A stretch of DNA of 64,000 bases, from NCBI GenBank assembly GCA_964469605.1, contig CAYXZA010000003.1:3721-67720 (forward strand), given 5' to 3'. Positions 15,263-34,556 of this stretch are shown in pieces. Positions within the stretch are counted from its first letter, which is position 1. The number at the start of each line of letters is the position of its first letter. The position numbers were made by a program, and so were the translations under genes. This DNA comes from an uncultured Candidatus Saccharibacteria bacterium (GTDB lineage: Bacteria; Patescibacteriota; Minisyncoccia; Phycocordibacterales; DATDWN01). The notes below the pieces were generated by a model that searched no databases, had not been told where the DNA came from, and worked only from the letters and a program-made list of their open reading frames with translations.

Positions 15263-15314
15263 ATGAAAAACCGCCAGCCCGCGCCGACGATTTTTCTCGT
15301 CGATCGACTGGCGG
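15263..15314 (-). terminator. Rho-independent terminator (minus strand) after the 131-aa gene.
   Basis: Stem ccgccag...ctggcgg encloses the inner hairpin cgacga/tcgtcg. An A-run on the plus strand gives a T-run on the minus strand. Confidence 0.45.
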
Positions 15315-15319
15315 GTGAG

Positions 15320-15715
15320 TTAGTCCGTCACTTCAGTGACGTACCAACCTTTCCCGTGGGTGACAGGAAGACCACATGCCTGGTATTCTTGGTAGAATAC
15401 CACTCTGACCTTTCTGTAGATTTTTTCGCCGAAGATTTTCACTTTGGCGATAGTGTGGGCGTAAGCCGCACACGTTTCTAGGTGGATGTTTCCTTCGCCC
15501 CTCCAATCCTTGGAGGGGCTACCGGAGGCAGGCTTTGTCCACCTCACCTCCGTTACTAGGGCGAGGTTTTTCTCTCGCGCCCACCAGCAGACGGCAACCG
15601 CGGTCTTGCCGACGGGGCAAGCAACTGCCCAGCAACACTCTAGTTTCCACTGAAGAGGAGTTTCAGGTTCCTCTTTGGAGAGGACGTATTTCATCATCTC
15701 TGTTATCATTGGCAT
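15320..15715 (-). CDS. GC-rich foreign gene for a 131-aa Cys-rich protein of unknown family. It may be a papain-like (CHAP/NlpC-P60-like Cys...His) fold, but this is very uncertain.
   Basis: Strong SD (aagggaggaaa) lies 8 nt upstream of the ATG, and the gene has its own terminator. The region is about 50% GC against a ~30% background. Cys cluster LECCWAVACPVGKT, then His at AYAHTIAKVKIFG about 55 aa later. Confidence 0.5.
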   Translation of the reverse strand: MPMITEMMKYVLSKEEPETPLQWKLECCWAVACPVGKTAVAVCWWAREKNLALVTEVRWTKPASGSPSKDWRGEGNIHLETCAAYAHTIAKVKIFGEKIYRKVRVVFYQEYQACGLPVTHGKGWYVTEVTD

Positions 15716-15817
15716 AGGAGTTTCCTCCCTTTCTTTCGTTTGGTTTGGTTTTGCTCATCCAAACGATTTGCTGCTGTACCCAGCAGATAGGTGCTAGAGC
15801 GAGCACCTCTGTTCTAT

Positions 15818-15908
15818 ATTATATCATTTTTAGATGTAAAAGTCAATAACAACCCTCTTTTGTTTTATTGATATAATATTTTAATCTAAAAATAATTTTA
15901 AAAACAAT
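15818..15908. repeat. Direct repeat copy 1 (~90 bp). It duplicates the gap upstream region.
   Basis: attatatcatttttagatgtaaaagtcaataacaaccctcttttgttttattgatataatatttt... is nearly identical to 17321-17410, with 3 differences. Confidence 0.85.
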
Positions 15909-15913
15909 AAAAG

Positions 15914-15945
15914 CACCTGGGGTTGAGCCAGGTGCGTAGGGTTTA
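15914..15945 (-). terminator. Rho-independent terminator (minus strand) after the 465-aa gene.
   Basis: On the minus strand, gcacctggctcaaccccaggtgc is followed by ttttattgttttt. Confidence 0.5.
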
Positions 15946-15957
15946 AAACATGAGAAA

Positions 15958-17295
15958 CTAGCGGCGAGTCTTAGCTCGGTGAGCAACTTCTTTGAGTTGT
16001 CCCTTGCCACGCTCGTGAGGTCGAACATAGGTCTCATTATCGGCGAGCATGATGCCATGCTCTTCTGCTCGCTTGCGTGATTCTGGCGTGGCCTTCTTGC
16101 CTTGCGGAAGTCGGCGGATATGCCAGATCACTTCGTGGCGAGAGATTTCACGAGAACGCTTGGTTGTGTCGGCATCCGCCTTTTCAATTTCCTCTTCCAA
16201 CTCTTGGAGGAGTAAGTCCACGTTTTCGAGTGAACGGATACGCGGAATGAAGAGGTCGAGGTTAAGAAAATGCTTTTTCTTCAGGATATTCTTGATCCTG
16301 TCGAGCACTCCTACGGCGATCGGTGGCTTTGGCATTTTCTCAACTGTCGTGATCGGAACCACGAGGTCGTAGAGTCGGAGAGCTTGAGTGAAGCGAAGGT
16401 ATTCATATAGAGCCACATTGTTGCGACGCTCGAAGAATTGGCGAACAGGCATGAGCCCGAGACCGTAGGAAGCATCCATTTCTCCTTTGATATCCAACGT
16501 CATGAAAACGTGGGCTGGGAAAGAAATTTCCGCACCTACAAATCTACTAATTCCAACTACTCGTTCGGTAGCTTTCGCTCCGATCTGGATGAGGGACTCC
16601 TTGTCTGACAGTCCGATGAAAGCGAACTGTGGAGATATGAACTCTGTCCAGCCAGGGATGAGTTCTCGAATTTCGCAGAAGTCCATGAAGACCCATGCTT
16701 GCGAGGGATCGTGGAGCATGCCATCTTGGAAGAAAGAGTTTTTGACTCCGTACTTCCGAAGGATGGCGAGCTCGTTGATCATATTGGTCGCGTCTTTGGC
16801 TGCTTGGATCGAGTGCTCCTCAATCATGTCTTTTGCTTCTTGTCCAAGCGTAGGGTGAACGAAGAGTTGAGAGGCGAGCCATTCAACTCTATTGACTTCA
16901 CGAACGAAATTCTCCAGACTACTGAACTTGGAATAGAACCAAGTTTCTGTTCCAGTGCCAGAGGCGGAGAGATCAATGTACGTCTTGAGAGTTGCCATGT
17001 TCTTTTCGCCCTTGTCCATTTCAGTTGCGAAGTATGCGGCTACTGCCTGCATTAGCATGTTGCTGCGATTGGTCGAAGCATTTTTGCCAATGCTGTTGAC
17101 TTTGATGCCATCGATCGTGTAGCAGACATCCATATAGGACTGTAGGGCACGATTGAAGTCTTGGTTTTTGACGTAGCGCGTATAGATATCACGCGCCAGT
17201 CTCTTAAGCGTATCGTAAGAGCAGTTCGCGCTGCGAACCAGCACTTGGACCTGCACCTTGAAGGTGAAGTTGGGAATGTCTCGCCATGTGAACAT
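15958..17295 (-). CDS. GC-rich foreign gene for a ~445-465-aa protein of unknown family. The C-terminus is basic and carries R-x4-H motifs (possible HEPN-like, speculative).
   Basis: Long intact ORF at ~50% GC. GGAGG lies 13 nt upstream of the ATG at 17295. The ORF-track start at 17355 falls inside the duplicated repeat. No RT (YxDD), RuvC/Zn-finger, or integrase motifs were seen. Confidence 0.55.
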   Translation of the reverse strand: MFTWRDIPNFTFKVQVQVLVRSANCSYDTLKRLARDIYTRYVKNQDFNRALQSYMDVCYTIDGIKVNSIGKNASTNRSNMLMQAVAAYFATEMDKGEKNMATLKTYIDLSASGTGTETWFYSKFSSLENFVREVNRVEWLASQLFVHPTLGQEAKDMIEEHSIQAAKDATNMINELAILRKYGVKNSFFQDGMLHDPSQAWVFMDFCEIRELIPGWTEFISPQFAFIGLSDKESLIQIGAKATERVVGISRFVGAEISFPAHVFMTLDIKGEMDASYGLGLMPVRQFFERRNNVALYEYLRFTQALRLYDLVVPITTVEKMPKPPIAVGVLDRIKNILKKKHFLNLDLFIPRIRSLENVDLLLQELEEEIEKADADTTKRSREISRHEVIWHIRRLPQGKKATPESRKRAEEHGIMLADNETYVRPHERGKGQLKEVAHRAKTRR

Positions 17296-17320
17296 TACAT
17301 TAACACTGCCTCCGACTCGA

Positions 17321-17410
17321 ATTATATCATTTTTAGATGTAAAAGTCAATAACAACCCTCTTTTGTTTTATTGATATAATATTTTCATCTAAAATAATTT
17401 TTTAAAAACA
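17321..17410. repeat. Direct repeat copy 2 (~90 bp). This is the native upstream/promoter region of gap.
   Basis: Identical to 15818-15908 apart from 3 positions. It abuts the gap ATG at 17411. Confidence 0.85.
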
Positions 17411-26846: not shown

Positions 26847-26861
26847 ATAGCAACTTTCTAG

Positions 26862-27237
26862 TCAACAAGCCATGTAAATGGCTTTGAAAGCGTTGCAAAC
26901 ACTGTGTTTTTCTTGCCCATAAAAAAGTTCAAGAAGATCTTCTCGAGGTAGAAGTTCAATTCTTGCATAGATTTGGTTGTGGCTATGATTTGAGCCACTT
27001 TTTCCATGTTGTTCGAGAAACTCCGACATTAGCAGGATCGTACTCTTTTCAGCCTCAATAAGCTTCCTGTAGTTTCTCAATGTCGCCCTGTACTTGCTTG
27101 TGTTCGGTCTTGGCTTTTAGCGGATCTACCTTGAATCCCTCGATAAAACATGAATCTTTCTCATCGAGAATAAACTCATTGATGCGAATGTGCTTCACCG
27201 CAAGTACTTTCTTTTTGCCATTTAAGGAGTTGAGCAA
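26862..27237 (-). pseudogene. Fragmented tyrosine recombinase (integrase) remnant next to tRNA-Val.
   Basis: Two short frame-shifted ORFs. The C-terminal fragment SGSNHSHNQIYARIE resembles the integrase box II (lGHs...T..Y.h) carrying the catalytic Tyr. The position next to a tRNA 3' end fits an integration site. Homology is weak. Confidence 0.35.
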
Positions 27238-27283
27238 TACTCAGTGTTCTTTAAAGTTCATCGTTAAGTTACCTATTAACTTC

Positions 27284-27312
27284 TTGACAAGATTGTAGTA
27301 TAGATGTATAAT
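27284..27312 (+). promoter_or_regulatory. Perfect consensus sigma70 promoter (TTGACA-N17-TATAAT) driving the 4-gene island operon.
   Basis: ttgaca at 27284-27289 and tataat at 27307-27312. The leader that follows contains the hairpin ttggccttttggccaa. Confidence 0.5.
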
Positions 27313-27375
27313 GGTGATTGAGTTTACGTTCTTTGTTTGGCCTTTTGGCCAACCCCTTAGCCTGAGGAGGGCAAC

Positions 27376-27717
27376 ATGACCAACACGATCGTTATCAACG
27401 GCGTCACCATCAGTGGTGGTGGCCAAAACGTCACCATTCGCAATGGCAAGGTGATCGTCGATGGTAAGAATGTTACGCCGGATGCGAAGGAGATCAACAT
27501 CTTCGTCACTGGCAACGTCCAATGTATCGAGGCTGACGCTTGTCAGAAGATTTCCGTCACCGGAGATGCTGGCAGTGTCATTACCCAGAGTGGCAATGTG
27601 GAAGTTGGCGGCGCCATCGGTGGCAACGTCAACACGATGTCGGGAGACGTCGACTGTGGCGGCGCCATCGGTGGCAACGTCAACACGATGTCGGGGGACA
27701 TCAAGTCGCACCAGTAA
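27376..27717 (+). CDS. Beta-solenoid repeat protein (bactofilin/DUF583-like polymer-forming fold, tentative).
   Basis: 113-aa ORF at ~50% GC. SD gaggaggg lies 6 nt upstream of the ATG. Repeated G-x-V/I-x-x-G-x-V units occur, including a tandem GGAIGGNVNTMSGD(V/I) repeat. Confidence 0.45.
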   Translation: MTNTIVINGVTISGGGQNVTIRNGKVIVDGKNVTPDAKEINIFVTGNVQCIEADACQKISVTGDAGSVITQSGNVEVGGAIGGNVNTMSGDVDCGGAIGGNVNTMSGDIKSHQ

Positions 27718-28051
27718 GGTCAAGTATTTTACAACTCGGTTACGAGCGCTTCAGTGATGGAGCGCTCTTTCTTTTGTGATGGTTGTATTTTGAGAATGAC
27801 CGGATGCACTTTGATGGGTTCTTTTTGCTCGGATGCTTTGATCGCTTTGACTTGCTCCTATGTAAAGAAAAGTGCCATGTTCTATTTCAGTATCGAATTG
27901 GCAGTGAGGAATGCAAGGTTGGTTTCCATTTTTTTTGAGGTGGTTTCATGTTTAAAGTTGACGGAACTATTATAGTATTTTACAATAGAGCCTCCAACAT
28001 GGGATTTGCACATGTTGGTTGAAGATCTTTGAAAGTGAAAGGAGGATTTGC

Positions 28052-28780
28052 ATGAATGAAGACACATGTGAGGTGTTGCGTGGACATTTTGAAGATTGTC
28101 TACAACATCTTGGACAAGTTTTCGCCTCAAAAATAAGAAAAGGTTCGCGAGGGGCGGCACAGGCAAAAAAGCCTATAGCTGAATTTTGCGGAGTCACGAT
28201 TGATTCCGTAACTCGATGGCTTCATGGTACTGGATCGTTACCTGTTGGCAAGTTATACATCAAGTTGATGTGTTTTCTCGACATGACAGGTTATCGAGTG
28301 ATCGAGTTGGAGAATATGTCGAAACCTCGTCGAAACTTTATTGAATTTATCGGCTATGGACTCTTTTCCAGTGATCAGGCTGCAGAGTTTCTCGGCTATC
28401 GCTCCACATCCACTCTTTATCAAGTTCTGCAAGGTAATCACCGCATAAGTGAGGACAAGGATCAGAAGATGTGGGATTTGTTTAAGGAAAGAGTGCGGGA
28501 ATTGCAGCAGGAGAAAGAAAGGTTGCAAAAGTTGTACCGATTGGATATTCCGTTGAAGACGGAGTTGTCCAAAATTTCGGGAAGACAAATGTCAGCTAGT
28601 CGCTCAGAAGCGATAGTCAGTATCATGAAAGGTTTGCTTGCGTTGATTGATGAGAGTTCTATTGAGAAACTTTTTGACGACGGGCAAGCAGATCTGAAAG
28701 AATCATCTGATACTATACTCCACCTATTGGCGCACTTGAGTGCCTTACATTCCCGTTTGGTCATGTCCGAGAAACAGTAG
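28052..28780 (+). CDS. Helix-turn-helix DNA-binding protein with two XRE-like HTH segments and a coiled-coil C-terminus.
   Basis: SD aaggagg lies 6 nt upstream of the ATG at 28052. The ORF-track start at 28019 is a TTG codon. HTH-like segments: IAEFCGVTIDSVTRWLHG and AAEFLGYRSTSTLYQVLQG. Confidence 0.5.
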   Translation: MNEDTCEVLRGHFEDCLQHLGQVFASKIRKGSRGAAQAKKPIAEFCGVTIDSVTRWLHGTGSLPVGKLYIKLMCFLDMTGYRVIELENMSKPRRNFIEFIGYGLFSSDQAAEFLGYRSTSTLYQVLQGNHRISEDKDQKMWDLFKERVRELQQEKERLQKLYRLDIPLKTELSKISGRQMSASRSEAIVSIMKGLLALIDESSIEKLFDDGQADLKESSDTILHLLAHLSALHSRLVMSEKQ

Positions 28781-28794
28781 AAAGGAGGTAGTTA

Positions 28795-29055
28795 ATGTCG
28801 AACGACCAATGTTACCAAGCTGTCGTCGATAAGATCATTCCTGGTGGCAAGCATGGCCCCTATGCAGTTGCGCGTTCTGAGAAACTTGGTTCAATCACCT
28901 TCTCGCTTGAAGGCAAGGTCTGGCAAGAGAGAGATTGGCCAGAACCTGGGACATGCGTGATGTTATCACAAGTCAGGAAGAAGCGCGCCGGGTGGCGCGC
29001 ACAACATGGGCGGTTCATTGAACCATCCGACGTCCAAACAACCCAGCAACAGTAA
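28795..29055 (+). CDS. Hypothetical small protein (86 aa).
   Basis: SD aaaggagg is present upstream. GC-rich. No recognised motif. Confidence 0.4.
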   Translation: MSNDQCYQAVVDKIIPGGKHGPYAVARSEKLGSITFSLEGKVWQERDWPEPGTCVMLSQVRKKRAGWRAQHGRFIEPSDVQTTQQQ

Positions 29056-29067
29056 GGAGAAAAAGCA

Positions 29068-29868
29068 ATGAGCAGTCAGAAAATCGAGAAAGTGGCACTG
29101 AAGGACTTGAAGATTAGTCTGTTTGTTCGCAAACAGCTGAATCAAGAACATGCACTGTATCTTGCAGAGCTCATCGAGAATGGTACCCAACTCCCTCCAA
29201 TCCAAATCACAAGTGATTATGTGGTGATCGATGGACGGCATCGTATCGAGGCTCACGGTCTTAATAATCAAAATGAGATCATGGCTGAGATTGTGGATAA
29301 TATTGTAACTGATAGTGAACTTATTTCTATGGCCTACAGGGCCAATATAGGTGGTCCGCTTCCACCATCGCAGCATGACACGGAGTATACGGTTATGTTA
29401 CTTCTTGATCGTGGAGAGAATATAAAGCGCATCGCCTGTATGCTAGGTCTTCCTATTAATCTGGCACGCAAGTACATCAACTCAGTGCAGTCGAAGGTTT
29501 TGCGTAAAAAGTTGATAAAGGCTATTAGAGGGATCACTGAGGATGGTATTACTATCGATACGGCCGCCGATAAGTACGGGGTGAATGCTGATTCCATCAA
29601 ACAAATGATTTCCGGCCAAAATAGGAAGTGTAATAGTGATTTTTTCTCAGATGTTATGAAAGGTCTCAATGTGACCTATAAATCGGTGAATTTGAAGAAA
29701 GCAGCCCTTTTCAAAGAATTAATGCAAAAATATGATGATAGTGATGTGACAGATGAGCAGGTGGAAGAAGTTTTTGCGCGTATCGAAAAGCTTCATAATC
29801 GGTCCGCTCATCTTGTTAATGAATGGAAGAGGCGGTTCGAGGCGAAAGGTAAGATTGCAAGGTTGTAG
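29068..29868 (+). CDS. ParB/Srx-fold (ParB N-terminal domain) protein.
   Basis: SD aaggag is present upstream. N-terminal region VALKDLKISLFVRKQ...LPPIQITSDYVVIDGRHRIEAHGL matches the ParB N-terminal domain pattern (arginine-containing H/RR box after vIDG). Confidence 0.6.
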   Translation: MSSQKIEKVALKDLKISLFVRKQLNQEHALYLAELIENGTQLPPIQITSDYVVIDGRHRIEAHGLNNQNEIMAEIVDNIVTDSELISMAYRANIGGPLPPSQHDTEYTVMLLLDRGENIKRIACMLGLPINLARKYINSVQSKVLRKKLIKAIRGITEDGITIDTAADKYGVNADSIKQMISGQNRKCNSDFFSDVMKGLNVTYKSVNLKKAALFKELMQKYDDSDVTDEQVEEVFARIEKLHNRSAHLVNEWKRRFEAKGKIARL

Positions 29869-29890
29869 TAGTTCTTTTGTGTAAGTATGG

Positions 29891-29930
29891 GCCCGAGGTA
29901 TCACACTCTATGTGTACCTCGGTTTTTTAT
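29891..29930 (+). terminator. Rho-independent terminator at the end of the island operon.
   Basis: cccgaggtatcacactctatgtgtacctcgg is followed by ttttttatatttttt. Confidence 0.5.
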
Positions 29931-30727
29931 ATTTTTTATAATTGCACCAATTGTTTCAAATAAATAAAGTTTTATTCACCAATATTTCTGGTGTAGTTAT
30001 CTAAAAAATACTCCCATCCTTTCAAAAGAAAAATCCATATTCGCCAAATCAAAATTAGCAAAGAGTTGTTTTTTGTGAAATATTTAATAAAGTAATTGGT
30101 GATAAGGATATTCAATTAATAATTTTGAAAATAGGTGTGTAAGATGGAGAAATGTATTATTAAAATATTATTTTATATATAGCAGAAACCCTCGGCTTGT
30201 TGAGCCGAGGGTTGTTTTAGATCTCTAAACTTGCCCCTTAGTTATTCGACTCGATGTTAGCATCGAGAGCACAGCCACTCTTTTCTGATGATGTGGCGTT
30301 AGAATGTGCTAGGAAGTTCATTTTTCGAATGAGCCTCGGGTATTTTTTGACCCGAACACCTTTTTTAGTGGTGCTCCTTCTTCAATTCAGAGTTACTGTG
30401 GAGTGATTTTTGTCTAACATCTCACACCCCAGGGCTTAGAAATCTTTGGCTTAATTTATGTTTGCGCAGGCCTTTGCGCTTTTAGTTACTTCATTTAATG
30501 TACCCTCCTTTTAAGGTACATCATTAATGATATCATATTATTAATATTATGTCAAGTTTTTAAATAATAATTTTTTAACATAAATTAAACCAATCTTAAA
30601 GTGGTTTTTATAAATATTTAATTTAAGTTATCTGGTTAAAAAAATCAAAATTTTTTAATTACTTTAATCAGTGGGCGAATGTATTATTATAATTCGCCCA
30701 AAATAATCATATTTTTATAGCATTTAT

Positions 30728-30979
30728 CTATTTGATTGAAGTTTCTGTTGGTTTTCTCATAAACCATTCACCGGCAAAACTTTTTTTCTTTTTTCCGGTA
30801 TTGATAGTTACTGTATAATCAGCTGAAGAAATTTTTCCGTTTTTATTATCTCTTTTTCTTAGAGCTACTATCTCAAATGGTCCATTTCCATATTTATTTA
30901 TCATTTCAGGTAGCATAGAAGGATAAGATTTTTTGTCCCAATATACAAATTCTCCAAGTGTTAAGTTCTTGATTATCAA
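30728..30979 (-). CDS. Hypothetical small protein (83 aa).
   Basis: SD aaaaggag lies 5 nt upstream of the ATG. The downstream terminator hairpin gggcgaatgtattattataattcgccc is present. No family recognised. Confidence 0.35.
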   Translation of the reverse strand: MIIKNLTLGEFVYWDKKSYPSMLPEMINKYGNGPFEIVALRKRDNKNGKISSADYTVTINTGKKKKSFAGEWFMRKPTETSIK

Positions 30980-31031
30980 CTTAGACTCCTTTTGTAATTA
31001 TGCATATTATATAAATATATGTCAAATCTTG

Positions 31032-31153
31032 TGGGCAAGGAGGGACTTTACCTCGAAAAAACTAGTCTCAGTCAGACTAGTTTTTTCTGGTCACCAGTTT
31101 GTCGACAAGCACTGCTGTGCTCGTAGACCGACAAACTGTTCTCGTCCCTCTCA
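31032..31153 (-). other. tRNA-Leu trailer element (distal copy). It has a tRNA-Leu 3'-end copy, a terminator hairpin, an anti-T-arm motif and a covarying stem-loop.
   Basis: tgggcaaggagggact (31032-31047) matches the tRNA-Leu(TAG) 3' end. Hairpin aaaaaactagtctcagtcagactagtttttt is present. Minus-sense gagggacgagaac and ggtctacgagcacagcagtgcttgtcgac are present. Confidence 0.4.
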
Positions 31154-31165
31154 TAAAGCTCCGCT

Positions 31166-31318
31166 TTATTCGAGAAATACCCCTCAGCTTTGCTGTGGGG
31201 ATTGGTAAAAGAGTGTCGGCGGTGGCCGACTCCTATACGAATATAAGAGCCATGGTTCGCCTCGCCAATACCTCGTTTGCTCTGCCAGCGAGGATCAGGC
31301 GAGGCGACTGCTTTTATT
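31166..31318. repeat. GC-rich structured repeat family, copy A (~150 bp).
   Basis: ttattcgagaaatacccctcagctttgctgtgggg...cgcctcgccaatacctcgtttgctctgccagcgaggatcaggcgaggcgactgcttttatt is ~96% identical to 51429-51581. Strong internal hairpins are present. Confidence 0.8.
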
Positions 31319-31478
31319 CTTGCTCCAACTAAAAAGCCGCCTAAGCGACTTTTTAGTGTGGACGAACAGTGTGGCTTTCCGAACTAGGGAAGTATAAGGG
31401 TTAAATAAGTTTAAGTATTAAAGAATTAAGTTTCATAAACGAGAAAGCCACGAGTGGTCTGTGACTTCTCGTGGCTTG

Positions 31479-31718
31479 TTAGTCGCCAATTGCGTTTTGA
31501 CGACCTGGCTGGGATTGGTGTTTCCAGTTCTTGGCTCCCTCATCAGCCAGGTACTTCAGGGCTCTGATGGAGTTTTTTCCATTTCGCATTGCTTGTCGCA
31601 ATGTTGCAGTGAAAAGTTCCTCACCTCCAATTTCCTCTTGAAAGGTTTTACCACCAGCAATAATGGTGATGGTTCCTTTCATTTCAAAACCGCCCGGTAG
31701 TTCATCTTTGGGTAACAT
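31479..31718 (-). CDS. Hypothetical small protein (79 aa).
   Basis: SD gaggagg lies 10 nt upstream of the ATG. Terminator gccacgagaagtcacagaccactcgtggc is present downstream. No family recognised. Confidence 0.4.
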   Translation of the reverse strand: MLPKDELPGGFEMKGTITIIAGGKTFQEEIGGEELFTATLRQAMRNGKNSIRALKYLADEGAKNWKHQSQPGRQNAIGD

Positions 31719-31844
31719 TTTCGCTGTGCCTCCTCATTTGAGTATAGCACATAAATTGCACTATGTCAAATAAGTTCGGAAAACCACCCATCTTATTCAA
31801 AATGAGTTAAAAAATATGTTGAGAAATAAAGTTATTTCGTAAGA

Positions 31845-31862
31845 TGGGCAAGGAGGGACTCG
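31845..31862 (-). repeat. Duplicate of the tRNA-Leu(TAG) 3' end (proximal copy).
   Basis: tgggcaaggagggactcg is identical to 31990-32007 in the tRNA gene. Confidence 0.7.
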
Positions 31863-31989
31863 GTTGCAACTTTTGTTTTTCGTGAACTTAAAACAAAGTC
31901 GCGACCCCGCCTCACTTCTTTCTGGCTTTCTCGTCCCTCTCCAAACACACAAAAAATCACCTCAAGAAAGAAGTGATTTTTAGGTGTTG

Positions 31990-32071
31990 TGGGCAAGGAG
32001 GGACTCGAACCCTCAATCCTTACGGAACTAGTTCCTAAGACTAGCGCGTATACCAATTCCGCCACTTGCCC
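31990..32071 (-). tRNA. tRNA-Leu (anticodon TAG) with a long variable arm.
   Basis: Reverse complement is gggcaagtggcggaattggtatacgcgctagtcttaggaactagttccgtaaggattgagggttcgagtccctccttgccca. Anticodon loop cttagga. Confidence 0.85.
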
Positions 32072-32145
32072 AATTTATATACTCTACACTATTTTCATAA
32101 AAAAATAAATAAGTATTTTATTTTTTTATGAAATATATTTTTATG

Positions 32146-32218
32146 TGCGCCCAGAGGGGATCGAACCCCCGACCATCTCCTTAAGAGGGAGCTGCTCTAC
32201 CAACTGAGCTATGGGCGC
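32146..32218 (-). tRNA. tRNA-Lys (anticodon CTT).
   Basis: Reverse complement is gcgcccatagctcagttggtagagcagctccctcttaaggagatggtcgggggttcgatcccctctgggcgca. Anticodon loop ctcttaa. Confidence 0.85.
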
Positions 32219-32224
32219 ATATTT

Positions 32225-32308
32225 TGGTGCCCAGGGAGGGACTCGAACCCTCAAGCCTTGCGGCAGGAGATTTTAAGTCTCCCGTGTATACCGTTCCACC
32301 ACCTGGGC
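32225..32308 (-). tRNA. tRNA-Leu (anticodon TAA), long variable arm, CCA encoded.
   Basis: Reverse complement is gcccaggtggtggaacggtatacacgggagacttaaaatctcctgccgcaaggcttgagggttcgagtccctccctgggcacca. Anticodon loop cttaaaa. Confidence 0.85.
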
Positions 32309-32348: not shown

Positions 32349-32422
32349 TTATTTGATTGAGGCCACGGTGGGATTTGCACCCACGCGTCGCGGTTTTGCA
32401 GACCGCTGTGTTAACTAACTTC
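32349..32422 (-). tRNA. tRNA-Cys (anticodon GCA).
   Basis: Reverse complement is ggccacgtggtgaagttagttaacacagcggtctgcaaaaccgcgacgcgtgggtgcaaatcccaccgtggcct. Anticodon loop ctgcaaa. Confidence 0.85.
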
Positions 32423-32435
32423 ACCACGTGGCCAT

Positions 32436-32675
32436 TTATTTGAACTTATTTTTAATGAGCAATCTTTGTTCTTTTGATTTGTAAAACATCTCCATTTCCA
32501 TAGCTTTTTTCCTTGATTCGTGTTCTTCATAATGAATCAGTTCCCATGGTCTGTATGCTTTCGTCGATCTGACATAACCTTTATTATGCCTTGAAAATCT
32601 AATAAATACATCTTGGCATGAACCTATATAAATGTCTTTATTTTTTAAACTTCTTATAAAATATACATAAAACAT
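32436..32675 (-). CDS. GIY-YIG nuclease superfamily protein (UPF0213/YhbQ-like).
   Basis: MFYVYFIRSLKNKDIYIGSCQDVFIRFSRHNKGYVRSTKAYRPWELIHYEEHESRKKAMEMEMFYKSKE matches the GIY...YIG...R...HN...E motif order. Confidence 0.65.
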   Translation of the reverse strand: MFYVYFIRSLKNKDIYIGSCQDVFIRFSRHNKGYVRSTKAYRPWELIHYEEHESRKKAMEMEMFYKSKEQRLLIKNKFK

Positions 32676-32694
32676 TTTAGTAAATATTACGATC

Positions 32695-32775
32695 GCGGTT
32701 TTGTCTAAAGATCTTTAGACAGACCGTTTAACTAACTTCACCACGTGGCCATTTATTTGAACTTATTTTTAATGA
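32695..32775 (-). repeat. Pseudo-tRNA-Cys 5' fragment plus 48-bp direct repeat (copy 2) of the sequence at 32400-32447.
   Basis: ttaactaacttcaccacgtggccatttatttgaacttatttttaatga is identical at 32400-32447 and 32728-32775. The copy has a disrupted anticodon region (palindrome tctaaagatctttaga inserted) and no T arm. Confidence 0.7.
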
Positions 32776-32787
32776 ACAACTTCTCTT

Positions 32788-33108
32788 TTATGTATTTATA
32801 ATACTGTCTATTTTTTGACGATTTTTTTCACCTACATCTATTGCAAAATCTATATGAGGTATTCTGGTTATTTTAGATTTATCTCTTATAAATTGTTTAA
32901 AATCAGACCTTTTTCTTTTTGCAAAGTTTACAGCATTCTTCTCTTCGCTATCTGGAAATACTGTAAAGAAAATCATAGCATTTTTTTTGTCATTTGACAT
33001 TTCCACTTTTGTCACAGTCAAAAATGAAGAACCGTTACTCTCTTGTAGTAAAAATTTTGATGCCAAATGCATTATCTCTTCTTTTATTCTTTCTCTTCTT
33101 ATATTCAT
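32788..33108 (-). CDS. rbfA: Ribosome-binding factor A.
   Basis: MNIRRERIKEEIMHLASKFL... at ~106 aa, KH-like. The gene lies immediately downstream of infB, as in conserved operons. Confidence 0.55.
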   Translation of the reverse strand: MNIRRERIKEEIMHLASKFLLQESNGSSFLTVTKVEMSNDKKNAMIFFTVFPDSEEKNAVNFAKRKRSDFKQFIRDKSKITRIPHIDFAIDVGEKNRQKIDSIINT

Positions 33109-34556
33109 TAGTTTATTATGATTTTATCACCGGATGCTATTTCTAGCTTACATTCTACCATTGCTCCAAATTCTTTTGGATCCTCTATTTTATCAACTTC
33201 AACTTTTTGAACCTGCAAGTTTTTAACTTTTCCTATTGATATCTCCTCGTCCCTTCTAAATATTTTAATAGGGGAGCCAACTTTGATAACTCCTTCTTCT
33301 AGTTTACATCCTATGACTTGTTTGTCTTTAACTTTGCTAAATGTTTTCAATACTTTTACCAAACCTTTTACAGTTTCAACATCATTTTTTGGTTTTCTGT
33401 TTTCCAACTCTTCTTTCAACCACTCGCTCATCTTGTATATAATATCAAAAGTTTTTATTTCAATCCCTTCTTTTTCTGCAAAATGTGAAGCTAGATTGTC
33501 TGCTTTTACAGAAAAACCTACAACAATAGCTTTGTCTTTTCCATTTGCAATTTTAACATCGGCTTCTGTTATAGATCCTATTCCTGATCTTATTATTTTT
33601 GGAGATATTTCTTCATCGCCAATTTTTGATATCTCATATAAGACAGCATCAAGTGTTCCTGCCATATCAGCTTTAACAACTATTGGAAATCTATGTTTTG
33701 AATTTTTATCAATATAGTCTTCTTGGTTTTCAATCTTGTTTTTAGATGAGATTGCAGAGTTTTTATCTTTTGTTATATGAAAAAATTCTCCGGCTTTTGG
33801 TATGCTGTCAAAACCAAATATTTTAACAGGTGATGAAAAAGTCGCTTCTTTTATCTTTTTTCCATCACAATCCTCCATTGTTCTGATAGTTGCTATTGAT
33901 TCACCGCTAACTAGAAAATCACCAACTTCAATCTTTCCATCTTTTATTATACAGACTGCTGTTATTCCATTTTTACTATCTTTGTTACTTTCAAGTATAA
34001 ATCCATTACCGAGTTTATTTTCATCTCCGGATAGTCCTTCTATGTCTGAAACTAAAAGTATCATATCTAAAAGTTCGTTTATACCAACTCCTGTTTTTGC
34101 TGACACTTCAACACAAGGTATACTTCCTCCATATCCTTCTATGTATATTTCATTTTCAACAAGTGAGTTTTTTGTCTTTTCTATACTAGCATCTGGTTTG
34201 TCTATTTTTGTTATAGCCACAATGAAAGGGGTGTTGCTTTCTTTTATAAATTTTAAAGCTTCAACTGTTTGGGGTTTTACACCATCTTCGGCTGATACGA
34301 CAAGGATTGCTATATCTGCAACTTTTGCACCTCTTTTTCTTATTGACCTAAAAGCTTCGTGACCCGGGGTGTCAATAAAAGTTATTTTTTCTATCTGACC
34401 TTTTTCGTTTTTATGTTCTATTTCATAAGATGAAATATGTTGTGTTATACCACCAGCTTCATTTAGAGGTTTATTGCTTTTTCTTATATAAGAAAGCAAG
34501 GTTGATTTACCATGGTCTATATGACCCATTATTGAAACTGCTGGGGCTCTTTTCAT
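33108..34556 (-). CDS. infB: Translation initiation factor IF-2 (short form, G domain plus C-terminal domains).
   Basis: G1 VSIMGHIDHGKSTLL is present. G3 DTPGHEAF is present. G4 NKID-type TKIDK is present. Confidence 0.9.
   Translation of the reverse strand: MKRAPAVSIMGHIDHGKSTLLSYIRKSNKPLNEAGGITQHISSYEIEHKNEKGQIEKITFIDTPGHEAFRSIRKRGAKVADIAILVVSAEDGVKPQTVEALKFIKESNTPFIVAITKIDKPDASIEKTKNSLVENEIYIEGYGGSIPCVEVSAKTGVGINELLDMILLVSDIEGLSGDENKLGNGFILESNKDSKNGITAVCIIKDGKIEVGDFLVSGESIATIRTMEDCDGKKIKEATFSSPVKIFGFDSIPKAGEFFHITKDKNSAISSKNKIENQEDYIDKNSKHRFPIVVKADMAGTLDAVLYEISKIGDEEISPKIIRSGIGSITEADVKIANGKDKAIVVGFSVKADNLASHFAEKEGIEIKTFDIIYKMSEWLKEELENRKPKNDVETVKGLVKVLKTFSKVKDKQVIGCKLEEGVIKVGSPIKIFRRDEEISIGKVKNLQVQKVEVDKIEDPKEFGAMVECKLEIASGDKIIIN

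Follow-up and report, generated by a model that had tools for sequence, protein, structure and literature searches.

What is a small gene for a GIY-YIG nuclease doing between rbfA and the tRNA-Cys gene of a bacterial chromosome, with a broken piece of a second tRNA-Cys in front of it? The question is raised by a 64-kb stretch of DNA from an uncultured Candidatus Saccharibacteria bacterium, the whole of which was analysed and is called the window here. L-numbered loci (L002 and so on) are homologous or InfB-related loci of other genomes. A preliminary description of the window saw in this gene a mobile, homing-endonuclease-like module that had duplicated part of a tRNA gene on insertion. We believe that the locus is best read as belonging to a family of selfish cassettes whose targets are tRNA genes and whose core is a bare nuclease of the SLX1/UPF0213 type, as a member that is old, has come down by vertical descent and has decayed in part. 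We give this reading a probability of roughly 0.6. The suspicion of mobility is supported by the link to tRNA genes, by patchy distribution, by similarity that does not follow the hosts and by tRNA fragments of foreign origin; what does not stand is that the insertion was recent and that the repeat around the gene is a target-site duplication.

On the minus strand the order is infB, rbfA, a 12-nt spacer, a 25-nt copy of the end of the GIY-YIG open reading frame (ORF), a pseudo-tRNA-Cys, the GIY-YIG ORF, intact tRNA-Cys, tRNA-Leu(taa), tRNA-Lys(ctt), tRNA-Leu(tag) and a terminator-like hairpin (Table 1). The pseudo-tRNA has neither a T arm nor a 3' acceptor strand. Read from 32750 to 32693 it runs ...GTTAAA-CGGTCTG, then TCTAAAGATCTTTAGA, then CAAAACCGCGA (tRNA positions 35-45), and diverges beyond. 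A string of 48 nt occurs exactly twice in the window without a mismatch, and chance is excluded as the source of such a repeat in 64 kb. The preliminary description had recognized this repeat and placed its second copy correctly, while the first, given as 32400-32447, was put 11 nt too low. It was right that the repeat contains the 5' part of tRNA-Cys (positions 1-23), that it brackets a GIY-YIG ORF (79 aa; PF01541, E = 2e-15) and that the second copy runs into a tRNA-Cys-like fragment with a palindrome in its anticodon (16 nt between G34 and C35). The remainder of the repeat had been taken for the rbfA-proximal flank; it is the end of the ORF plus a 2-nt spacer.

A comparison with related genomes had been proposed as a check on mobility, and the junction without the insert turns out to be the common one. 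Scanning metagenomes with the InfB of the window gave 80 loci (InfB identity 43-57%), of which 57 run from rbfA to a tRNA-Cys on the same strand and mostly on to the same Leu-Lys-Leu tRNA cluster as in the window. The GIY-YIG ORF is present in one of these 57 (L095) and absent from 56, and in 26 of the loci without it the rbfA-tRNA spacer is merely 8-42 nt long. Given this absence, the ORF is not a fixed housekeeping gene. Relics without an ORF, consisting of a tRNA-Cys 5' fragment and hairpins, lie in the spacers of L115, L129, L131 and L162. In a filled and an empty locus (L058 and L169), whose tRNA-Cys genes are identical and whose flanks are 78% identical, homology ends exactly between tRNA positions 34 and 35 and restarts at the 5' end of the intact tRNA.

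Other ORFs are found at the same place in relatives. The spacer between rbfA and tRNA-Cys holds a LAGLIDADG-like ORF in place of GIY-YIG in L092, L113 and L117, and an ORF with an HNH motif directly follows tRNA-Cys in L002 (3769-4158). Several endonuclease families, as classed by motifs read by eye, thus share the neighbourhood of tRNA-Cys as a hot spot.

Is the association with tRNA genes a property of this locus or of the gene? A scan of one genome per species with the protein alignment confirmed 217 homologues, and 80 loci were retained. There is a tRNA on the same strand within 200 nt of the ORF in 76 of the 80. In 55, from many classes of the candidate phyla radiation (CPR), the ORF ends 0-100 nt ahead of tRNA-Cys or overlaps its first bases. 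Twelve other loci have it before a tRNA for Ser (GCU, CGA, UGA), Ile (GAU), Leu (GAG, UAG) or Pro (UGG, CGG), and L010 before Glu (UUC); in Bacteroidota and Ignavibacteria the ORF lies downstream of tRNA-Ser. Thus the search for the same module at other tRNAs, which had also been proposed, was successful, and the family occupies at least ten tRNA species. As a separate observation, L024, L048, L074 and L080 each carry two GIY-YIG cassettes at different tRNAs within one 5-kb locus, for instance at Cys and Ser(GCU), so that one genome can hold more than one copy of the family.

The ORF is usually preceded by an incomplete tRNA of the same type as the adjoining intact one, broken in a loop. Copies of tRNA-Cys and tRNA-Ser(GCU) are broken at 34/35 and those of tRNA-Glu and tRNA-Ser(UGA, CGA) at 35/36; the Ile, Leu and Pro copies are interrupted in the D loop. 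Past the insert the tRNA sequence resumes, and the ATG of the nuclease gene most often follows 10 nt after C35, in the place of tRNA positions 45-47 (11 of 36 loci; 9-12 nt in 20 of 36). L002 has an in-frame ATG there; in the window the corresponding triplet is ATC and the ATG comes six codons later.

Downstream of the ORF and 2-27 nt past the intact tRNA, about half of the Cys loci have at least one further tRNA-Cys copy that is truncated at its 5' end: it begins near position 22-27, bears a double hairpin at 34/35 and extends to the 3' end. Direct repeats of 42-59 nt with 90-100% identity, comprising anticodon stem, hairpins and CAAAAC, are found in about 12 loci, one immediately ahead of the ATG and the other immediately behind the intact tRNA (56/56 in L049, 57/59 in L036, 54/57 in L069, 47/48 in L041, 46/48 in L003). 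ORF and intact tRNA are thus a unit of about 330 nt, bracketed by hairpin-bearing anticodon-arm repeats inside a disrupted tRNA copy. The downstream fragment is absent from the window and from L002 and is kept in L003. Two GIY-YIG ORFs or stacked fragments occur in L039, L043, L069, L036 and L019, as expected of nested invasions.

The inserts that break the tRNA copies are themselves a recurrent element. They consist of 15-nt units of the form T-5 nt-NNN-5 nt-A, mostly TCTSSC-NNN-GSSAGA, and we counted 188 perfect units in 387 kb of filled loci, against 7 in shuffled sequence and 19, mostly of other types, in 388 kb of mostly empty-site loci. The units stand mainly in adjacent pairs of 30 nt (double hairpins, n=58), flanked by CTG...CAAA in 41 of the 58. 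A TNC loop precedes a GNA loop in 35 of the 58 pairs and follows it in 1, an arrangement that reads identically on both strands. When 39 pairs were aligned, both sides changed at 8 of 12 stem positions and G-U pairs occupied 0 of 468 cells; the set was chosen for palindromy, and only the type of variation is informative. This pattern suggests that the constraint may act at the level of DNA, where cGNAg is a very stable triloop. A separate comparison of G-U with A-C mismatches, as marks of RNA-level and DNA-level hairpins, had just 12 informative units and was underpowered.

Hairpin pairs also sit in D loops of pseudo-copies, and in T loops between TG and CAA where the T loop reads TGCAA. In the window there is one 16-nt palindrome in place of the adjacent pair seen in relatives. 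Its sequence, TCT-AA-AGA/TCT-TT-AGA, looks like a collapsed 30-nt double hairpin (TCT...AGA/TCT...AGA) that has kept the outer TCT/AGA and the central AGATCT. It may be mentioned here that many CPR tRNA-Cys genes (those of the window, L002, L003, L013 and others) have a T loop TGCAA(A/T)T rather than TTCGAAT, in which the anticodon-loop TGCAA recurs. Double palindromes of another type, 30 nt long (TCCGCC-NNN-GGCGGA, twice), lie in or at the edge of the infB coding region (L044 349-378 and 1130-1159, L025 2046-2075, L069 237-266, L043 572-601); they may be in-frame palindromic inserts like those of Rickettsia, or merely code for Gly-rich linkers.

Over 496 pairs of loci the pairwise identities of GIY-YIG and InfB are essentially uncorrelated (Spearman 0.11), and many pairs combine 72-78% identity in GIY-YIG with only 37-48% in InfB; the clade of the window is the opposite, with 41-45% in GIY-YIG and 50-52% in InfB. 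Cys-linked ORFs share 71% identity with one that is linked to Ser(GCU), which suggests a target switch between two anticodon loops that share G34-C35, while Ile-, Leu-, Pro- and Ser(UGA)-linked ORFs form groups of their own. Several of the trailing tRNA fragments resemble the tRNA-Cys of other loci far more than the local intact gene: of 42 positions, the fragments in L016 match the local gene at 24 or 28 and a foreign one at 36 or 38, and the fragment in L020 has 26 local and 36 foreign matches. Such foreign fragments point to transfer. We also asked whether 5' and 3' fragments are complementary in the acceptor, as halves of one resident tRNA would be; five loci could be evaluated and the outcome was ambiguous. 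Viral contigs gave just 2 weak homologues, neither beside a tRNA.

What kind of protein is encoded? The PF01541 match (57.1 bits, cut-off 22.6) covers residues 1-71 of 79 and therefore leaves no room for a DNA-binding extension, which we looked for in the 79 residues and did not find. Residues Y5, Y16, G18, R26, H30, N31 and E62, the GIY-YIG catalytic set, are invariant in an alignment of 13 homologues. The AlphaFold (AF2) model is one compact domain (predicted local distance difference test score, pLDDT, 96) with elements E-E-H-E-H-H that include the beta-beta-alpha-beta-alpha fold. In a profile search the nearest solved proteins are UPF0213 members (1zg2, E = 8e-13; 1ywl, E = 6e-10), followed by the SLX1 nuclease domain, with the catalytic domain of I-TevI far behind; a search of the PDB with the 79-aa sequence alone gave no match. 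Foldseek agrees with this ranking (SLX1 at template modelling (TM) scores of 0.65-0.72 and root-mean-square deviations of 1.7-3 A; also UPF0213, I-TevI and UvrC N-terminal domains), and TIGR01453 is matched at 20.8 bits, below its cut-off of 56.

Since the neighbours rank in this way in both searches, the protein is predicted to be a domain-only nuclease of the SLX1/UPF0213 lineage and not of the Seg/I-TevI type. In this respect the comparison with homing endonucleases made in the preliminary description fails: of the features of a classical enzyme such as I-TevI or Seg, presence and absence at a conserved site is found here and the combination of a nuclease with a DNA-binding domain is not. 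Conversely, the protein belongs by sequence to the UPF0213/YhbQ type and lacks stable presence across related genomes.

How old is the module in the window? The exact 79-aa protein is present on three contigs of one assembly, and relatives in which it is 84% (L002), 70% (L003) and 49% (L004-L009, a Parcubacteria genome) identical have the same order: rbfA, a tRNA-Cys 5' fragment broken between CTG and CAAAA by a palindromic insert, the ORF and intact tRNA-Cys. The very same pseudo-tRNA fragment recurs in L002, L003 and L004. Nei-Gojobori estimates of nonsynonymous (dN) and synonymous (dS) divergence for the three closest genomes give the ORF dN of 0.106/0.187/0.208, dS of 0.80-1.08 and a dN/dS ratio (omega) of 0.12-0.23. 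The values are 0.060/0.188/0.207, 0.55-1.10 and 0.11-0.20 for rbfA and 0.114/0.206/0.206, 1.15-1.88 and 0.10-0.14 for infB. In this clade the ORF is inherited together with its neighbours and is under purifying selection. Among the three genomes (dS about 0.8-1) the palindrome, 16-18 nt long, and its flanks are nearly unchanged while the spacer before the ATG is not conserved, and the palindrome region is therefore also constrained. Judged by these comparisons, the module should be regarded as old rather than as a recent insertion.

If the module is old, why is the 48-bp repeat still exact? The 25-nt flank in the repeat consists of the codons of the C-terminus conserved in the family (...IKNKFK, stop) and the 2-nt spacer, and the upstream copy therefore derives from the working copy. 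The corresponding repeat copies of L002 differ from each other. L003 has no duplicate of the flank, but its pseudo- and working copies agree over positions 1-35, including a change of G29 to A that is compensated in the working gene only. Such a pattern fits conversion of the 5' region that took place repeatedly. Most likely, gene conversion from the working copy (ORF tail and tRNA 5' part) onto the pseudo-copy keeps the 48 bp identical; an alternative source of the flank is a remnant of an older cassette copy. The 62% similarity that continues past the repeat (repeat search at 77 nt; tblastn E = 0.24) was judged to be AT-rich low-complexity noise.

These features can be put together into a scheme. 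A complete cassette begins with a partial tRNA (about positions 1-44) split in a loop, at G34/C35 in tRNA-Cys, by at least one 30-nt double hairpin. The bare nuclease gene comes next, its ATG often in the place of tRNA positions 45-47, then an intact tRNA of the same kind directly after the ORF, and often a second, 5'-truncated tRNA with the same double hairpin, with repeats of 42-59 nt bracketing ORF and intact tRNA. The nuclease, recognizing structure and not reading sequence, would break tRNA-gene DNA at the tip of a palindrome that encodes a stem-loop. Recombination with the conserved tRNA halves as homology arms would then install the cassette. The host should be unharmed, since an intact copy of the tRNA would always be left. 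Expression would depend on read-through from infB-rbfA, and RNase P, cutting where the tRNA begins, would release the mRNA and define its 3' end. In the window, the downstream repeat would have been lost and the double hairpin would have collapsed to a single palindrome.

Several points weigh against this scheme. We infer the nuclease activity, the cut site and every event of mobility from sequence. The protein is without a DNA-binding domain, and the choice of a specific tRNA is unexplained; so is self-immunity, the intact tRNA next to the ORF retaining the presumed target. Within the clade of the window the ORF evolves like an ordinary host gene, its dN and omega matching those of rbfA, and an endonuclease gene that is purely selfish would not usually be kept under purifying selection over long times. 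Presence/absence polymorphism within a species was not found, look-ups of the exact GIY-YIG and RbfA proteins returning the same arrangement only. The comparison of GIY-YIG with InfB is one of pairwise identities and not a proper tree reconciliation. Finally, the intact tRNA beside the ORF may be cargo of the cassette or may be the resident gene; in L058 it equals the tRNA-Cys of the empty relative.

Could the gene simply work for its host? A domesticated or housekeeping nuclease of the YhbQ/UPF0213 type, co-transcribed with tRNA-Cys, might serve DNA repair or the processing of tRNAs or transcripts, for example, with pseudo-tRNA and palindrome as a conserved 5' leader. Such a role would account for dN, dS and omega being the same as in rbfA and infB, for an arrangement common to relatives down to 49% identity and to about 45 infB-linked loci, for the near constancy of the palindrome and its flanks over a dS of about 0.8-1 and for UPF0213 proteins being the closest solved relatives, and the failure to find a separate promoter above chance fits operon expression. 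The preliminary description had itself named conservation of the arrangement across distant relatives, with the gene under purifying selection as a YhbQ-type housekeeping gene, as what would speak against mobility. Half of this is what we see: the arrangement recurs in relatives at 84, 70 and 49% identity under purifying selection, but 56 of the 57 related infB-rbfA-tRNA-Cys loci are without the gene, many with a spacer of 8-42 nt. A host role also leaves aside that the module occurs at numerous tRNAs, in every case with a partial duplicate of the tRNA concerned, as well as the fragments of foreign tRNA alleles, the nested copies, the relics without ORF and the uncoupling of GIY-YIG similarity from host similarity. 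We consider it rather unlikely. It may nevertheless describe a secondary state in the window's own clade, where a secondary host function of the ORF is quite possible.

The remaining explanations fare worse. The exact 48-bp direct repeat around the ORF, and the duplicated tRNA 5' half at the junctions of filled loci when compared with empty ones, would be natural for a fresh insertion with the repeat as its target-site duplication. A target-site duplication is ruled out by the flank, which is coding sequence of the ORF and cannot be pre-existing target DNA. The layout is moreover older than the split from L002 and L003 (dS 0.8-1.1), the repeat copies are diverged in the former and the flank is not duplicated in the latter, and the pseudo-copy has a 4-nt deletion just past the repeat, all of which makes freshness very improbable. 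The same low credence is what we would give to an event at the RNA level, in which the interrupted copy would be an intron-containing or split tRNA-Cys, or would hold a group I intron with a homing endonuclease, and would be spliced to a functional tRNA. The insertions do always fall at loop-coding positions (34/35 or 35/36, 55/56 in the T loop, and the D loop), and 34/35 is where the group I intron of cyanobacterial tRNA-Leu classically lies. Yet nearly every locus has an intact tRNA-Cys adjoining, the pseudo-copy of the window is without T arm and 3' acceptor and has the D-stem deletion, no intron or ribozyme family is matched even at E <= 1, and the roughly 75 nt outside the ORF are too small for a ribozyme core. 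The absence of G-U pairs from the 468 cells, in a set selected for palindromy, and the dyad-symmetric loop classes are as expected of DNA palindromes. Least credible of all is a duplicated attachment (att) site of an integrase-type island or prophage integrated in tRNA-Cys. Partial tRNA duplications are typical of integrative elements, and the window holds att-like repeats of the 3' ends of tRNA-Leu(tag) and tRNA-Gln; here, however, it is the 5' half that is duplicated rather than the 3' end. At about 300 bp the inserted segment is short, it encodes no integrase, and the tRNA is broken within the anticodon, where a palindrome has been inserted; nor was an integrase-bearing element bounded by such repeats seen in about 140 loci.

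Returning to the selfish cassette, a more far-reaching suggestion can be made, which we hold to be possible but on balance doubtful. The 30-nt double hairpins and the bare SLX1-like gene may represent a new class of structure-guided mobile element that inserts into tRNA genes at the tips of palindromes coding for stem-loops, disables the resident tRNA and supplies its own intact tRNA between hairpin-bearing repeats of the anticodon arm. Precise loss would then leave a dead tRNA, and the host would be addicted through tRNA replacement.

We know other systems with some of these features. SegB of phage T4 is a free-standing GIY-YIG homing endonuclease whose gene lies in a tRNA cluster (PMC2330249). 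The two cases are alike in having a GIY-YIG gene among tRNA genes, inherited with flanking tRNA DNA and patchy among relatives, and differ in that SegB is a full-length phage protein with a DNA-binding region, whereas here a bare 79-aa catalytic domain is encoded in a bacterial chromosome. The best matches of the protein in sequence and fold are SLX1 and the UPF0213 proteins (YhbQ/YazA, BH0048, EF2693). SLX1 cuts branched DNA, which would suit a target of stem-loop palindromes; unlike the window protein, it requires SLX4 and has an extra zinc-finger domain. We know of no pseudo-tRNA halves or hairpin elements at SegB loci such as are present here, and no published tRNA linkage of UPF0213 proteins was found in the full-text literature searched. 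Elements that integrate into tRNA genes share with the cassettes a conserved tRNA landing site and a partial tRNA duplication at the junction that keeps one copy intact. They differ in using tyrosine or serine integrases, duplicating the 3' end and measuring kilobases, where we see no integrase, the 5' part or anticodon arm, and about 0.3 kb.

A further parallel is mitochondrial. Paquin, Laforest and Lang (1994, 2000) reportedly described in Allomyces mobile endonuclease ORFs that carry a replacement piece of the target gene, as well as double-hairpin elements. The likeness extends to an endonuclease ORF with a partial copy of its target gene, to the survival of a working gene next to a remnant of the resident one, and to short mobile elements of two hairpins at such junctions and in structural-RNA genes. 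The Allomyces system is mitochondrial, its target is the protein gene atp6 and the sequences are unrelated, and the parallel is a lead only. The 2000 paper is cited in PMC3787672. In CPR bacteria, rRNA genes carry GIY-YIG ORFs in inserts that are not introns of group I or group II and lie mostly at the top or base of stem-loops; these inserts were judged sparse and probably not spread by homing, and no tRNA cases were described (PMC11270868). The host group and the location of GIY-YIG ORFs within structural-RNA genes are the same as here, a likeness by description rather than by homology comparison.

The full-text literature searched, which largely leaves out subscription journals, contains no description of tRNA-linked bare GIY-YIG cassettes, and an earlier one is possible; the family is apparently undescribed, and it is widespread among tRNA genes of the ultra-small CPR bacteria. 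If the reading as selfish cassettes is correct, a minimal element, consisting of a nuclease gene of about 240 nt with a few hairpins, routinely settles in the tRNA genes of CPR/Patescibacteria and in those of some Bacteroidota, Ignavibacteria and Omnitrophota. The stray tRNA pieces and the small ORFs labelled 'GIY-YIG family protein' that occur in thousands of annotations would thereby be explained. It would also provide a bacterial counterpart to mitochondrial double-hairpin and GC-cluster elements, the mobilising enzymes of which have, to our knowledge, never been identified, and a natural domain-only GIY-YIG nuclease guided to its target by the structure of DNA. For tRNA annotation, and for phylogenies based on synteny around tRNAs, the interrupted copies and the fragments of foreign alleles are a practical trap.

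Within the window there is no second GIY-YIG homologue. Between 32300 and 32850, Rfam finds nothing but tRNA, both at gathering cut-offs and at E <= 1, and the RNA fold of the pseudo-tRNA is unremarkable (z = -1.9). A promoter scan of the region gave 11 sites where 10 were expected, none above chance. The hairpin after the tRNA cluster is the probable end of an infB-rbfA-GIY-tRNA transcription unit.

Table 1. Position, strand and basis of the features around the GIY-YIG ORF in the window
Feature	Position	Strand	Basis
Terminator-like hairpin, the only one of the region	31952-31981	-	
Downstream tRNA cluster	31989-32308	-	
tRNA-Leu(tag)	31989-32071	-	
tRNA-Lys(ctt)	32145-32218	-	
tRNA-Leu(taa)	32225-32308	-	
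Intact tRNA-Cys(GCA), working copy directly downstream of the GIY-YIG ORF	32359-32433	-	ARAGORN; Rfam RF00005, 60.8 bits
48-bp repeat, copy 1: tRNA-Cys positions 1-23, 2-nt spacer and last 23 nt of the GIY-YIG ORF	32411-32458		repeat search
GIY-YIG ORF, 79 aa, bare nuclease domain; stop codon 2 nt before tRNA-Cys position 1	32436-32675	-	PF01541, AF2, alignment
Pseudo-tRNA-Cys: positions 1-34 (4-nt D-stem deletion), palindrome, positions 35-45	32693-32750	-	direct reading and alignment
Perfect 16-nt palindrome TCTAAAGATCTTTAGA, unambiguously between G34 and C35 of the pseudo-tRNA-Cys	32704-32719		
48-bp repeat, copy 2: pseudo-tRNA positions 1-23 and copy of the ORF tail; 12 nt past the rbfA stop	32728-32775		repeat search
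rbfA, upstream neighbour; in most relatives tRNA-Cys is directly next	32788-33108	-	PF02033
infB, synteny anchor	33108-34556	-	Pfam

Other parts of the window also have repeats at tRNA ends. An 18-nt direct repeat, GAGTCCCTGTCTCCCAGC, at 60275-60292 and 60447-60464 is the 3' end of tRNA-Gln(ttg) and brackets a GC-rich, hairpin-rich insert of 154 nt, which contains TCTCGCGACGGCGAGA at 60418-60433 and matches no Rfam family. It could be a small element that targets tRNA 3' ends, or an att scar. The 3'-terminal 18 nt of tRNA-Leu(tag) are present in three copies (31032-31049, 31845-31862 and 31990-32007, with 2, 0 and 0 mismatches), which look like att repeats; they bound segments of about 0.8 kb and 127 nt, and the latter holds the terminator-like hairpin of the tRNA cluster.

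Two islands, 15263-17400 and 26860-31860, stand out at 41-50% G+C from a background of about 30% and have few or doubtful ORFs. No rRNA or other Rfam family was detected in them, and over the islands Pfam gave only a weak helix-turn-helix match, in the ORF at 29068-29868. The island at 26860-31860 has tRNA-Val on one side and the repeated ends of tRNA-Leu(tag) on the other, and its DNA is probably of foreign origin.

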